A stretch of 64,000 bases of DNA from an uncultured Alphaproteobacteria bacterium (GCA_963709085.1 CAVPVB010000014.1:13094-77093), one strand, 5' to 3'. Positions 6,146-12,542 are shown, counted from the stretch's first letter. Program-made: numbers and translations. Notes: generated by a model not told the origin, from the letters alone.

Positions 6146-6242
6146 TGAGGGTGATTCCCCGGCAAATTGATCACGGTATGTGATGGGCGCTGCGCCGCCG
6201 CCCTCACCGAGCGTGAGCAGCGCGGGTCCCGGTCTCGGCTGA

Positions 6243-6716
6243 TCAGGCCGGCGTATCGGCGCCGGGAGGGTCGAGCCGATCGATGAGCTTCTGGAAGACG
6301 GCTTCGAACTCCGGATCGTAGTCGTCAGGGTGGGCGCGGATGACCGCGATGGCCTTACGATAGTACTCGGCTGCCTGGCGGTGATCGCCGCGTGCCTCGC
6401 AGACCATGCCGAGACGGTCGTAGCCGTCATGGACGTCGGGGAAGCGGGCGAGCAGATCGTGAGCGGCGCGTTCGGCTTCGTCGAGTTTGCCGGCGCGGAC
6501 GAGGTTGGCCGCGGCGTTGGAGGCCTCGGTCAGTTCGTCGGTGTCGTGGTCACGGATTTGGAGATAGCTGGTGAACCCCGGCCGACGTGGCGGCGCTGCG
6601 GCTGCGTGGGCGGCGCGTGCGGTCGCGGCGGCGGCTTCGTCGCGGGCGAGGCAGCACTGCTTGTACTTCTTGCCGCTGCCGCAGGGACAGGGATCATTCC
6701 GTCCGGTCTTGGCCAT
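6243..6716 (-). CDS. SEC-C motif / TPR-like protein
   Basis: [22 protein letters not shown] (SEC-C), followed by helical TPR-like segment ([27 protein letters not shown]). Confidence 0.85.
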
Positions 6717-6738
6717 CTCGCCAACATCATGGAAAAGG

Positions 6739-7321
6739 ATGTCATCCTTGTACCAAGCCCTGCTGAACGACACCAGATTCCATCAGCAATTGCTCGACTT
6801 CGATCGCGACATTGCAACTGCCGCCCGGGAGGTCGGCTGTAGCGAATGCCGCGGCGCACTGCACTCGGCGCGGTTTCCCCGCAAGCCGCGCGGGGTTCCG
6901 GCCGGACTGGGTGACGAGGTACTGCCAGCGTTTCAGCTGCTGCTGTGCGGTGGACGGTTGCCGCACGCGGGCAACGCCGCCATCGCTGCGCTTTCTCGGC
7001 CCCAAGGTCTATCTCGCCACGGTGGTGACGCTGGCCACCGCGATGCAGCAGGGGGCGACGCCGCTGCGTGTGCAGCGCCTGTCGGCGGAACTTGGCATCG
7101 ACCGGCGCACGCTCGGGCGCTGGCGCAAATGGTGGCTGGAGACCTTTGCCGGCCGGTTCCGGCCGACCGTCATGGCCGCCTTCATGCCGGCGCTCGATCT
7201 GACCGGCGTGCCGGCCACGCTACTTGACCGCTTTGCCGGCGATCTCGCGGAGAAGCTGAGTTGCCTGCTGCGCTTTCTTGGCCCGTTGACTGGCGGGGCG
7301 GCGGCGAGGCGGGCTTTCTGA
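6739..7321 (+). pseudogene. Cys-rich hypothetical protein preceding the DDE transposase; +1 frameshift near 6918
   Basis: [33 protein letters not shown] / YCQRFSCCCAVDGCRTRATPPSLRFLGPKVYL..IDRRTLGRWRKWW; one extra G (GACGAGGTACTGC) joins the two frames. Confidence 0.7.
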
Positions 7322-7789
7322 GGGACCGCAACGACCCGCAGAGGATGCCCGTCGCCGTCCGGCGGTAGCCACCGTTACCGTCCGACTCCGCAACTTTCTG
7401 GAGAGCGGGCATGGCGGACAAACCCGGATTGCGGCTGCATGAGCGCTGGGCGCGATTGCGTTTCTCGGTGATCGGGCAGCTGCTGGCTGCGCCGCCGGAG
7501 AACGGCGCCCTGCGGGCAGCACTGGAAGACCTGGCGGCCCGCGAGTGGCGCCATCCGACGACTGGTGGGCCGGTCCGCTTCGGTGTGTCGACCCTTGAGC
7601 GCTGGTACTATCGTGCCCGCAACGAGCGACAGGACCCGGTCGCCGTGCTGCGGCGCAAGCGGCGCGTGGATGCCGGCGAGCAGGCGTCGATGACGACGCA
7701 GGCTGCGTCAGGCCCTGCTCGCCCAGTACGACGCGCACAAGAGTTGGAGCGCCAAGCTACATCACGACAACCTGGTAGCGCTGGCACAG

Positions 7790-9422: not shown

Positions 9423-10524
9423 CGCTGGCACAGACCCGCTCCGAGTTGCGGCCGGTCCCGTCCTACACGACGGTGCGGCGGTTCCTGCGCACGCACGGCC
9501 TGAGCAAGCGGCGTCCACTGACGACGCGGCAGACCGTCGGCGCGCTGGCAGCCGCGGCCCGGCTCGATGCCCGCGAGGTGCGCAGCTACGAGGCTGAATA
9601 TACGAATTCACTTTGGCACTGGGATTGCCATTTTGGATCCAGAAAGGTGCTGACCTCCCGTGGCGTATGGGAGACGCCTGTGCTGTTCGGCGTTCTCGAC
9701 GACTACTCCCGGCTGGCCTGTCATCTGCAATGGTATCTTTCAGAGGCGGCTGAGAATATCGCCCATGGCCTGTCGCAGGCGATGCAGAAGCGCGGCTTGC
9801 CGCGCGCTGCCATGAGCGACAACGGCGCCGCCATGACCGCCACCGAGATCAGCGAAGGCCTCGCCAGGCTCGGCGTTCTTCATCAAACCACGCTGCCGTA
9901 CAGCCCGTACGTCAATGGCAAGCAAGAGACCTTCTGGGGGCAGATCGAAGGCCGTCTCATGGCAATGCTGGAAGGCGTCGATGATCTGACCCTGGCAAAA
10001 CTCAACGAAGCGACACAGGCCTGGGCGGAATACGACTACAACCGCCAGCGCCATTCCGAGATCGACGACACGCCACTCGCTCGCTTCCTTGCCGGTCCCA
10101 ACGTCACGCGGCCCTGCCCGGATGCAGCAACGCTCCGGCTGGCCTTTACCCGCACCGAGCGGCGCACCCTGCGCAAGAGCGACTGCACCGTTACCATCGA
10201 AGGTCGCCGCTTCGAAGTCCCGCGCCAGTATCGGCATCTTTCCATGCTGGACGTCCGCTACGCCGCCTGGGACCTCACCGAAGTCCACCTCGCTGACCTG
10301 CACACCGGCAAGGTCCTCTGCCGTCTGTTCCCGCAGGACAAGACCGGCAACGCCAACGGCCGGCGCCGAACCTTACAGCCGATCGCGGCAGGTTCCGTCG
10401 CCGCGCAACCCGCCAGCGCACCGCCGGCACGCGGCATGGCGCCGCTGCTGCAACGCCTGATCGACCGGCAAGCGGCGACCGGTCTGCCACCGGCCTACCT
10501 CCCCAAGGATGAAGGAGAGGACAC

Positions 10525-11397
10525 GTGAACAAGAAACTGCTCGCCCTCTATGGCCTCAAGTGGAACCCGTTCGCCCCGGGCGTACCGGTCGAGGCGTTGC
10601 ACGTCACCGCACGCGTCGAGTCGTTCTGCTGGCGCGTGCGCCAGCTTGTGGGCGAAGGCGGTTTTGCCCTCGTCACCGGGGTGCCCGGCACCGGCAAGTC
10701 GGCTGCTTTGCGCATCCTCGCGGCCTCGCTGGCGGCGCAGCGTGACGTCAAGCTCGGCGTGATCAGCCGCCCGCAGGCCAACATCGCCGACTTCTACCGC
10801 GAGATGGGCGACCTGTTCGGCGTCGAACTCCAACCGCACAACCGCTGGGCCGGCGCCAAGGTGCTGCGCCAGCGCTGGCAGGCCTATATCGATGCCACCC
10901 TGTCCCGGCCCGTGCTCATCGTCGATGAAGCACAGGAAATCCAGTCCGCCGTCCTCGCGGAGTTGCGCCTGCTGTCTTCCGCCGAACTCGATTCGCGCAT
11001 CCTGCTCACCGTCGTGCTCGCCGGCGACGGGCGGCTTGCCGACCGCCTGCGTTCCGTCGCGCGAGGAGCGCGCCTTCGGCGCGACGAGTTCCTCCCCCTC
11101 GACAGCCGCATGCGCGTGCGCCTGACGATGGAACGCGCCACGCCGCAGGACCTGCAGGAATGCCTCCGCCACGCCCTGCAGCAGGCCGGCGTGCCGACGC
11201 TGATGACCGTGGAGGTGATCGCCGCCCTCTGCGACCACGCCCAGGGCAATTTGCGCGCGCTGATGATCATGGCCGACGAACTGCTCGTCGCCGCTGCCCA
11301 GCGCGAGGCTCGCCAGATCGACGAAACCCTGTTCTTCGAGGGCTGCGCTGCCGCCACCGCCGGCGAAGCCAAGGCAGCGATCCGGCGGCGCCGATGA
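10525..11397 (+). CDS. ExeA-like AAA+ ATPase (AAA_22 type; TnsC/MuB-like position)
   Basis: Walker A GVPGTGKS, Walker B LIVDEAQE; GTGA overlap with the transposase stop. Confidence 0.85.
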   Translation: MNKKLLALYGLKWNPFAPGVPVEALHVTARVESFCWRVRQLVGEGGFALVTGVPGTGKSAALRILAASLAAQRDVKLGVISRPQANIADFYREMGDLFGVELQPHNRWAGAKVLRQRWQAYIDATLSRPVLIVDEAQEIQSAVLAELRLLSSAELDSRILLTVVLAGDGRLADRLRSVARGARLRRDEFLPLDSRMRVRLTMERATPQDLQECLRHALQQAGVPTLMTVEVIAALCDHAQGNLRALMIMADELLVAAAQREARQIDETLFFEGCAAATAGEAKAAIRRRR

Positions 11398-12347
11398 CCG
11401 CGCTTCCCGTCCAGCCGGCGCATCGCCTCGCCGATCGCCCCGAGCAACAGCACTGGCTGGTTACCGGCCTGTGGGCCGACGAAGCCGTCGGCATCATCGG
11501 CGGCGAGCCCAAGTGCTGCAAATCCTTCCTGGCGTTGGACCTCGCCGTCGCGGTCGCCGCCGGCTCTCCCTGCCTGCGCCGCTTCCCGGTGCCGCGCCCC
11601 GGTCGCGTTCTGCTCTATCCCGCCGAGGACGCACTGCATATCGTCCGCCGCCGGCTCGACGGCATCTGCGCCGCCAGCGGCCTCGGCCTCGCCCAGATCG
11701 ATGTTCAGGTCATCACCGCACCGAGCCTGCGCCTCGATCTCGACACCGACCGCGGACGTCTCGACGAGACCGTCGCCGCCCTCAAGCCGCGCCTGCTCAT
11801 CCTCGATCCGTTCGTCCGCCTGCACCGCATCGATGAAAACGCCAGCGGCGAGGTCGCGCCGGTGCTCGCCTTCCTGCGCGACCTGCAGCGCCGCCACGCG
11901 GTTGCCGTCGCCGTCGTCCACCACGCCCGCAAGGGTGGCGGCGCCGTCCGCGCCGGCCAGGCCTTGCGCGGCTCCTCCGAGTTCCATGCCTGGGGCGATT
12001 CCAACCTCTACCTTCGCCGCGACGGCAACGACCGTATCGTGCTCACCGCCGAGCACCGCACCGCCGCCGCCATCCCCAGCGTCACCCTGGCGCTCACCCA
12101 GCGCGCCGATGCCCTCGCGCTCGAGCCTGTCCAGCCGCACGTGTCGGCGGAACCCGAGCCCACGCCGTCGTCCATCGACGAACGCATCGCCGCGGCCCTC
12201 GCGGACGCCGATCGGCCACGCCCCTTCGCCGAGCTGCGCGCCTGCTGCCGCGTCCGCACCGCCACCCTCTACGCGCGCCTCGCCGCCATGACCGCCACCG
12301 GCCGCATCGTCAAAACCGGCGACGGCTATCGCCTCGCCGGTCACTGA
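11394..12347 (+). CDS. AAA_25 / RepA-like (SF4, RecA-fold) helicase-ATPase with C-terminal HTH-like segment
   Basis: GIIGGEPKCCKSFLALDLA, VLLYPAED, LLILDPF, VVHHARK, LRGSSEFHAWGDSNL; ATGA overlap with the ATPase stop. Confidence 0.85.
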   Translation: MTALPVQPAHRLADRPEQQHWLVTGLWADEAVGIIGGEPKCCKSFLALDLAVAVAAGSPCLRRFPVPRPGRVLLYPAEDALHIVRRRLDGICAASGLGLAQIDVQVITAPSLRLDLDTDRGRLDETVAALKPRLLILDPFVRLHRIDENASGEVAPVLAFLRDLQRRHAVAVAVVHHARKGGGAVRAGQALRGSSEFHAWGDSNLYLRRDGNDRIVLTAEHRTAAAIPSVTLALTQRADALALEPVQPHVSAEPEPTPSSIDERIAAALADADRPRPFAELRACCRVRTATLYARLAAMTATGRIVKTGDGYRLAGH

Positions 12348-12542
12348 CCGGCGTCCGCGGTCGCCAAGCCTCAGCGTCGCTCCCGGCGGCGCCAGCTTCG
12401 CCGGACAGCCGGCCGGCGGGCAGGCCACACCCGCCTCTTCCGCTTCCCGCTTCCCAGCACCCCTACAGAAATCGGGAAGCGGTAGCGGGAAGCCCATCAA
12501 AAACCGCGCTCACCAGCCCATCAGAAAGCACGATCGCGCTCA

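Follow-up and report, generated by a model that had tools for sequence, protein, structure and literature searches.

A multicopy five-gene transposon related to Tn6049 carries a RepA-like ATPase gene beside a conserved palindrome at its right end

We analysed a transposon in a 64,000-nucleotide stretch of DNA from an uncultured Alphaproteobacteria bacterium (GCA_963709085.1, CAVPVB010000014.1:13094-77093), which we call the window and from whose first letter positions are counted. Positions 6127-12542 hold a discrete, multicopy DDE transposon with five genes, present here as an inactive copy. Its core proteins and end sites identify it as a member of the Tn6049 group in which a helicase-like gene and an adjoining site appear as an exchangeable module, joined in some lineages by a primase. 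We consider it probable that this is the dead copy of a multicopy 4.77-kb five-gene transposon of that group, with the gene roles proposed below. The element is made up as follows.

6127-12542, plus strand: whole transposon copy with a length of 6,416 bp; the matches to copies on contigs C20, C24, C12, C18 and C7 of the same assembly run from 6127 to 12542
6127-6153, plus strand: left terminus TGAGC and outer subterminal site L1 (TGAGCGCG-CAAAG-TGAGGGTG); terminus and site type also found in relatives and in Tn6049
6168-6188, plus strand: inner left site L2 (TGATCACGGTATGTGATGGGC), containing the left TGATGGGC noted earlier; its distance to the Cys-rich gene is kept in relatives
6243-6716, minus strand: SEC-C motif/TPR protein gene, 157 aa from MAKTGRND, intact; Pfam SEC-C 3.2e-11 and TPR matches
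6754-7321, plus strand: Cys-rich helix-turn-helix (HTH) protein gene, 190 aa when intact; extra G at 6919; open in the C20 copy and in 59 relatives
7411-10528, plus strand: DDE (rve) transposase gene, 490 aa in its intact form; interrupted by one added G at 7702 and by an insertion sequence (IS); Pfam rve and a weak Mu-transpos_C match
7790-9422, minus strand: IS4-family (Tn5-like) IS splitting the transposase gene; recognised by inverted ends, junctions, Pfam Tnp_DNA_bind and Dimer_Tnp_Tn5, and many genomic copies
10525-11397, plus strand: AAA_22 (ExeA/GspA-like, MuB/TniB-like) ATPase gene, 290 aa, intact; Pfam AAA_22 4.2e-21
11394-12347, plus strand: AAA_25 RecA-fold ATPase gene, 317 aa, intact; RSF1010 RepA-like with a C-terminal winged helix; Pfam AAA_25 2e-36
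12437-12492, plus strand: right-end palindrome with 19-bp arms (12437-12455 and 12474-12492) made of TTCC(C)-type units, the loop holding CCCTACAG
12492-12512, minus strand: inner right site R2 (TGAGCGCGGTTTTTGATGGGC on the minus strand); same site in relatives
12516-12542, minus strand: outer right site R1 and right terminus (TGAGCGCGATCGTGCTTTCTGATGGGC on the minus strand); same site in relatives

The limits of the transposon were set by a BLAST comparison of window positions 5500-13200 with the whole assembly. The match to the other copies opens at 6127 (TGAGCCTGAGCGCGCAAAG...) and closes at 12542 (...GATCGCGCTCA), and the flanks are unlike in every copy (C20, C24, C12, C18 and C7). The termini TGAGC...GCTCA are exact to the base, being set by at least five near-identical copies within the same genome, which holds five full-length or near-full-length copies with fragments besides; a search with the AAA_22 ATPase gives five full-length matches there at 99-100% identity and one partial match. 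With the IS and its duplication removed, the window copy measures 4,770 bp, the same as the intact copy at C20:62482-67251, in which all five reading frames are open and which is the open, master-like copy of the set. An initial annotation, made from the window alone, had already recognised a discrete transposon, and multiple copies, defined ends and short target duplications bear this out. It had given the element as 6146-12542; the right end stands, ...GCTCA at 12542, but the true left end lies 19 bp further left, since the TGAG at 6146 is a degenerate box of the outermost site. That intact copies might have their ends elsewhere is excluded by the copies in the genome itself together with copy pairs in relatives. 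Both neighbours had been described as broken at the junctions: the Tn3-family tnpA to the left is indeed cut at 6126, but the IS66-family element to the right is unbroken. Its left end is at 12543, the start that three other copies share, and a second 1,612-bp IS66-family copy matches 12543-14154 from end to end.

Each end of the transposon carries two copies of a site of about 20 bp, with the form TGA(G/T)C(A/G)CG, 3 to 9 bases, and T(T/G)TGATGGGC. The octamer TGATGGGC lies at 6181-6188 on the plus strand and at 12492-12499 and 12516-12523 on the minus strand, where it forms the inner halves of L2, R2 and R1, so that the arrangement described in the initial annotation, once at the left and twice inverted at the right, is found as described. 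Its count in the window, 3 against 3.35 expected, is at chance level, and the octamer alone therefore proves nothing; the end sites are nonetheless real, since the same sites occupy the same places in relatives from other genomes and in Tn6049. A weak 34-nucleotide end-to-end inverted repeat (71% complementary) was also considered and is better explained by the repeated 20-bp sites.

Aligning the flanks of other copies, as had been proposed, gave exact ends and also the target duplications. Copy pairs in other genomes showed CCTG, GGTG, AGT, CAT, GGCGC, CCCC, TCT, GCG, CGCG, GACC and CCAG (11 relatives), and the C12 copy in the genome itself is flanked by CACAGT. Over these 12 insertions the duplications are 3-6 bp long, mostly 3-4 bp, with 4 bp the commonest; one relative is inserted within a type I hsdR gene. 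No matching duplication pair was found for the window, C20 and C24 copies, and the window copy has none because its flanks have been rearranged. The left flank of the window copy and the right flank of the C20 copy have CCAA in common and, once the element is removed, give an open 1,026-aa Tn3-family transposase, the pieces joined in frame being window 5495-6126 and C20:67252 onward (position 10019 onward in locus L011). This joined TnpA shares 85% identity with the genome's other Tn3 copies over its first 215 aa and only 26% over the remainder, and the break in likeness coincides with the insertion point. The shared CCAA thus suggests recombination between copies, but the pairing is uncertain given these two identities. 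The C24 copy (C24:25500-30800, locus L012) sits between two inverted pieces of the 3′ end of an ISL3-like transposase gene, and its flanks point to an inversion or to recombination between copies.

The initial annotation could place the element in no named family, a statement that has to be withdrawn, as the core is homologous to the named transposon Tn6049. In BLASTP against the Tn6049 copy of pMOL30, the Cys-rich orf1 is 44%, the transposase 53% and the ATPase 51% identical (E 6e-31 to 4e-163), and the best relatives of the ATPase in plasmid records, at 51-55% identity, come from Cupriavidus and Paraburkholderia. Tn6049 is a 3.5-kb element present in 12 copies in Cupriavidus metallidurans CH34, where its ATPase is named gspA (PMC2864759), and on the Pseudomonas aeruginosa plasmid pHS87a it has 12-bp imperfect inverted repeats and 4-bp direct repeats (PMC4739549). 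The two elements have in common a core of Cys-rich orf1, rve transposase and AAA_22 'GspA' ATPase in the same order on one strand, short and imperfect terminal inverted repeats, the subterminal repeat TGAGCACG-N-TGATGG, present twice per end in both, a short target duplication (CTATCG for Tn6049 on pMOL30, 4 bp according to PMC4739549) and a multicopy state within the host. They differ in length and termini (3.5 kb with TGTGC ends in Tn6049, 4.77 kb with TGAGC ends here), and the 71-aa orf4 of Tn6049 is replaced by the 317-aa AAA_25 protein, which has no similarity to it. Tn6049 thus has neither AAA_25 nor the right-end palindrome, and it also lacks the SEC-C/TPR gene.

The NCBI pipeline labels the Tn6049 transposase 'IS481 family transposase'. 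Against the NCBIfam IS481 model, the window transposase scores 113.5 bits (1.3e-32), far below the cut-off of 224, and we rejected assignment to this family. IS481 elements consist of a single gene of about 1 kb and have no ATPase.

To place the element among its relatives, a genome scan with one genome per GTDB species was used, which yielded more than 557 stretches encoding relatives of the AAA_22 ATPase; the analyses of close relatives rest on the best 80 of these loci (ATPase identity 65-94%). The order SEC-C (on the minus strand), Cys-rich, DDE, AAA_22 and AAA_25 is kept in all 80 wherever the contig reaches, so that the synteny search proposed earlier recovers the four-gene order in every one of the closest loci, and the order recurs in far more distant elements. 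Transposase-ATPase pairs that lack AAA_25, which if general would have spoken against the four-gene proposal, occur in the Tn6049 branch but not in most of the relatives sampled. The loci come from Alphaproteobacteria (Acetobacteraceae, Reyranella, Stellaceae and Xanthobacteraceae), Steroidobacteraceae and Burkholderiales, and from bins labelled Solirubrobacterales, Verrucomicrobiota, Anaeromyxobacter and Dormibacterota; many lie on contigs of 4-6 kb, as expected for a repeat that breaks short-read assemblies. Across loci, the identities to the window proteins co-vary, with r = 0.87-0.93 among Cys-rich protein, DDE transposase, ATPase and AAA_25, and 0.61-0.69 for SEC-C. The ratio of nonsynonymous to synonymous substitution (dN/dS) is 0.155 for the DDE transposase, 0.158 for the ATPase, 0.24 for AAA_25, 0.34 for SEC-C and 0.36 for the Cys-rich protein, which places all five genes under purifying selection. 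Judged by synteny, co-variation of identities and dN/dS, the AAA_25 gene belongs to the transposon.

The family is widespread and unstudied. A search with the AAA_25 protein gave at least 7,996 matches at E <= 1e-5 out of 8,000 scored candidates (clusters at 90% identity), and two protein searches each returned more than 7,500 such clusters, as a lower bound. The best-scoring AAA_25 matches listed are mostly unnamed or called 'RecA-family ATPase' and come from environmental assemblies. Most matches are from soil and peat metagenomes, in which copies of the element probably break assemblies. Sampling 300 genomes of the same phylum revealed close copies of AAA_25 (>60% identity) nowhere but in its own genome, so that its distribution among cultured species is patchy.

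The DDE transposase, the AAA_22 ATPase, the Cys-rich protein and AAA_25 had been described as a four-gene unit; all four are found, but the SEC-C/TPR gene was overlooked as a fifth. As had also been described, the transposase, ATPase and AAA_25 genes are coupled by overlaps: the GTG start of the AAA_22 gene overlaps the transposase stop codon (GTGA, 10525-10528), and the ATG of the AAA_25 gene overlaps the AAA_22 stop codon (ATGA, 11394-11397). The transposase residues D190, D255 and E291 are invariant from the window element to Tn6049 and beyond, and the protein matches PHROG 310, a transposase family of transposable phages, better than it does the IS481 model (3.7e-43 for PHROG 310). The ATPase matches MuB in the PDB, its best solved relative (8xvb, 9e-4), and PHROG 296, 'DNA transposition protein' (1.6e-19). 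The kinship with Mu that had been suggested for the DDE/AAA+ pair is in agreement with these matches, and a Mu-like nature of the pair is thus supported by protein comparison. As in Mu (A/B), Tn7 (TnsB/TnsC), Tn5053 (TniA/TniB) and Tn552, an rve DDE transposase is followed directly by a MuB/TnsC/TniB-like ATPase, there are several binding sites per end, the ends are of the TG...CA type and there is a hint of a Mu-type C-terminal domain; the window transposase is, unlike theirs, shorter (490 aa). None of the five products has a Pfam or NCBIfam match to TniQ/TnsD, TnsA or a resolvase, unlike the case of Tn7 and Tn5053, the latter of which carries the TniR resolvase with a res site, and the absence of a TniQ or Cas module noted at the outset is correct.

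In the Cys-rich protein, C31, C34, C65 and C66 are invariant, C71 and H39 are nearly so, and an HTH lies at about residues 107-131. Fold and profile searches (model pLDDT 72) gave no significant match and no PDB fold match; its best match is a TFIIS-type zinc ribbon (probability 0.44), the HTH similarity is weak, and there is no TniQ domain. By this comparison the protein belongs to the core, since Tn6049 shares it, and our guess is that it is a regulator or a site selector. The SEC-C/TPR gene is found at the same place in every locus that reaches the left end, with an uninterrupted full-length match in 52 of the 80, and the protein is specific to one subgroup of elements.

The AAA_25 protein has a single sequence match in the PDB, the hexameric helicase RepA of RSF1010 (1g8y; 3.7e-9 with the single sequence, 5.4e-12 with a profile), so that the relation to this helicase claimed in the initial annotation holds, RepA being its only solved relative. 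Across 39 sequences, residues K43/S44, E78, D138, H177 and R192 do not vary; they align with RepA 1g8y, whose catalytic set we take to be K43, E77, D140, H179 and R207 (Walker A Lys, catalytic Glu, Walker B Asp, sensor His and Arg finger); the residues aligned with these five are thus conserved, as in RSF1010 RepA. The AF2 monomer model (pLDDT 71) has a RecA-type core followed by a C-terminal winged helix of three helices plus a hairpin. Its PHROG matches are the helicase parts of phage primase-helicases, and as in these proteins a primase partner is found in some relatives. Unlike RSF1010 RepA, AAA_25 is encoded within a DDE transposon and not in a plasmid replicon, has the winged helix and is not accompanied by a RepC-type initiator. 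That AAA_25 is a helicase is a well-founded guess, which the primase neighbours strengthen.

The palindrome lies between the AAA_25 stop codon and site R2. Among 22 sequences, 86.9% of cells pair and 5 of the 19 pairs show a compensatory, both-side change; this covariation score was reached by 0 of 500 shuffles, and slid registers fall to 32-56% paired. In distant lineages, a corresponding structure follows 3′ of AAA_25 or of the primase, with the form (GTTCC)2, about 20 nucleotides with CTATATAG or a similar motif, and (GGAAC)2. Within the genome itself, the palindrome is confined to this element, in copies or relics, and positions 6000-12700 have no Rfam match. Throughout the loci compared, the AAA_25 gene and the palindrome travel together, and we infer that the palindrome is the DNA site of the AAA_25 protein.

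More distant relatives indicate that this pair is not tied to one transposase. Three of the 300 genomes of the same phylum encode AAA_25 homologues at 46-51% identity (L094-L096), again 3′ of an AAA_22 ATPase and an rve transposase gene, the products of these two genes being only 28% and 25% identical to those of the window. In L095, a DnaG-type primase gene stands directly 3′ of AAA_25 (Zn_ribbon_DnaG 6.7e-12, Toprim_2 8.2e-10) and lies within terminal inverted repeats (TGTTACGC... at position 1, inverted at 5497), and Desulfosarcina ovata has at least three identical copies of a DDE/AAA_22/AAA_25/primase array. A third lineage (L100-L102) has a 185-aa Cys-rich protein, DDE, AAA_22 and AAA_25, without primase or SEC-C, and one of its copies is inside a type I hsdR gene. 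The L100 transposase and ATPase share 53% and 51% identity with those of the window but no more than about 28% with their counterparts in L095 and L097, whereas the L100 AAA_25 is 46% identical to that of the window and 65% identical to that of L095 and L097. This conflict implies that AAA_25 has been exchanged between transposon lineages.

For the element as a whole, we propose the following mechanism. At the paired subterminal sites, the rve transposase would cut and join the TGAGC...GCTCA ends; target DNA would be captured by the MuB/TniB-like AAA_22 ATPase, and the Cys-rich zinc/HTH protein would regulate transposition or aid in target choice. The AAA_25 gene and the right-end palindrome would form one exchangeable module: AAA_25 would be a RepA-like hexameric motor whose winged helix binds the TTCC/GGAA repeats of the palindrome and which, once loaded there, unwinds the DNA, so that the replication step of transposition could start without waiting for the host helicase. 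This step could be either a Mu-type fork restart or an IS3/IS481-type copy-out, and relatives that add a DnaG-type primase would go one step further. A role of AAA_25 as a helicase in transposition is thus suggested by its sequence relationships, and the element may supply part of its own replication machinery. We can only tentatively extend this to an abundant class of DDE/MuB-type transposons that bring their own replication start, in the form of a RepA-like helicase loaded through its winged helix on a right-end palindrome and accompanied by a DnaG-type primase in part of the lineages; such elements would provide for their own transposition, or for amplifying an excised form, independently of host fork restart, and the cassette would be exchanged between unrelated lineages.

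Several observations weigh against this proposal. Tn6049 reaches 12 copies without AAA_25, so the core machinery does not need this protein (PMC2864759). Target duplications of 3, 4, 5 and 6 bp are all seen. This variability is unlike Mu, Tn7 and Tn5053, where the duplication is fixed at 5 bp; in Tn552 it is 6-7 bp. The P-loop of AAA_25 is atypical (GGEPKCCKS) and, unlike that of RSF1010 RepA, has Cys instead of the second Gly, the AF2 model has low confidence in this region (pLDDT <50 at residues 19-40), and by Foldseek the core groups with RadA/RAD51/KaiC, to which it is as close as to helicases. The ATPase, unwinding and DNA-binding activities of AAA_25 are predictions from its sequence, and a symmetric operator, or an RNA or single-strand hairpin, could equally give the covariation of the palindrome. 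Finally, the 80 loci yielded neither a circle nor a head-to-tail junction (no overlapping ends or right-to-left junction in the tested contigs of up to 9 kb), and neither did the metagenome contigs, which hold 72 left ends of the subgroup. The replicative or self-amplifying mode put forward in the initial annotation may apply, although this search for circles and tandem junctions gave none.

These points bear on two other accounts of AAA_25, both of which we consider unlikely. According to one, AAA_25 and the palindrome are the minimal replication module of an excised circle, which makes the element a part-time self-replicating episome and the helicase a means of copy-number amplification and not a part of the transposition reaction. 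Here, the RepA-like protein adjoining an iteron-like palindrome, the primase joined in some lineages and the movement of the module as a unit between transposon lineages would all fit, as would the scores of the transposase on the IS481 and IS3 models, which are below the cut-offs; these two families use circular intermediates. The missing contig overlaps and junctions, however, argue against such circles, and the element encodes neither an initiator (Rep) nor a polymerase. The other account, to which we give a similarly low probability, holds that AAA_25 is not a helicase but a RecA-fold remodeller or regulator of the transposition complex, acting in the disassembly of the strand-transfer complex, a task that host ClpX performs for Mu, or in target choice or immunity. 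It is favoured by the grouping with RadA/RAD51/KaiC, by the atypical P-loop and by the translational coupling to a MuB-like ATPase, but the only solved sequence relative of AAA_25 is a true helicase, its gene is recurrently linked to a DnaG-type primase, and it moves with its own palindrome and not with a particular transposase.

It seems quite improbable to us that AAA_25 and the SEC-C/TPR protein have no part in mobility and are carried as cargo that acts on the host or serves a selfish end, for instance in defence, anti-defence or addiction. In favour of this, Tn6049 does without both, and the SEC-C/TPR gene is limited to one subgroup and co-varies less closely with the core. For AAA_25, however, the position is fixed and the coupling to the ATPase gene is kept across very deep divergence, the palindrome next to the transposon end is always 3′ of it, and its dN/dS differs little from the values of the core genes.

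On the current view, Mu-type and copy-out transposons rely on the host for replicating the transposition intermediate. An extra RepA-like gene is not known to us in the Mu, Tn7, Tn5053 or Tn552 systems, nor are we aware of any bacterial DDE transposon in which a replicative-type helicase gene is a regular component, accompanied by a primase gene in some lineages. Full-text searches in a limited collection of papers returned nothing relevant on transposon-encoded helicases or primases in bacteria or on Tn6049-like elements, and no paper describing a five-gene family with AAA_25 was found; Tn6049 is named in PMC2864759, PMC4739549, PMC3384475 and PMC13192273, which do not study its mechanism. 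If the helicase module works as we propose, it would link transposons to the replication modules of plasmids and phages and offer a compact system for the hand-over of the strand-transfer complex to replication; otherwise, one would still have to explain why AAA_25 and the palindrome are so strictly conserved. The gene set of the element is small and clean, and suited to rebuilding as a mini-transposon.

The inactivity of the window copy had been ascribed to two frameshifts and an IS insertion, and comparison with the other copies confirms all of this: the Cys-rich gene and the transposase gene have each gained one G, at 6919 and 7702 respectively, and the transposase gene is further split by the IS4-family insertion at 7790-9422, which is flanked by the 11-bp duplication CGCTGGCACAG at 7779-7789 and 9423-9433. 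One extra base is present at each of the two frameshift sites in four of the five copies compared (window, C24, C12 and C18), only C20 being open at both, and it is not always the same base (GAGGTAC or GAGTACC; CAGGCTG or CAGCCTG; that is, G or C). Further single-base indels are found in the AAA_25 gene of the C24, C12 and C18 copies, at 11758 and 11897. These recurrent one-base differences might stem from genuine decay, with the copies mobilised in trans, from gene conversion or from assembly error in repeats; with 68 frames of 1,200 aa or more that contain no stop, the assembly is not indel-ridden overall, a weak proxy that is compatible with errors confined to repeats. Programmed frameshifting in the Cys-rich and DDE genes was rejected, as both are open in the C20 copy and have uninterrupted full-length matches in 59 of 80 (Cys-rich) and 36 of 80 (DDE) relatives.

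Degraded and reduced forms of such elements were also seen. Relic ends of a diverged relative, closest to the type of locus L015, lie at C11:41603-41875, C7:920192-920283 and C7:910289-910363, and the C11 relic retains the last 28 codons of AAA_25, the palindrome and both right-end sites. A 149-bp miniature derivative, consisting of about 95 bp of the left end and the terminal 28 bp inverted, is found at the same locus in three peat metagenome contigs (L116:6230-6378, L136:1963-2111 and L145:360-508).

Around and within the window copy, other repeats were noted. The IS4-family element contains a nested 173-bp repeat (8465-8637) with more than 25 near-identical copies scattered over the genome, which looks like a miniature mobile element. 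The IS66-family element at 12543-14154 has a single open reading frame (ORF) and several genomic copies and abuts the last base of the transposon exactly; no 8-bp duplication was visible at its far end. Directly 3′ of it, at 14151-14280, lies a REP- or MITE-like repeat of about 130 bp; contigs C7 and C24 carry more than 50 copies of it that are 85-98% identical. Further to the left in the window, two adjacent plus-strand ORFs (3290-3745 and 3717-4649) have the look, by eye only, of a pair of AbiEi-type antitoxin and AbiEii-type nucleotidyltransferase toxin.

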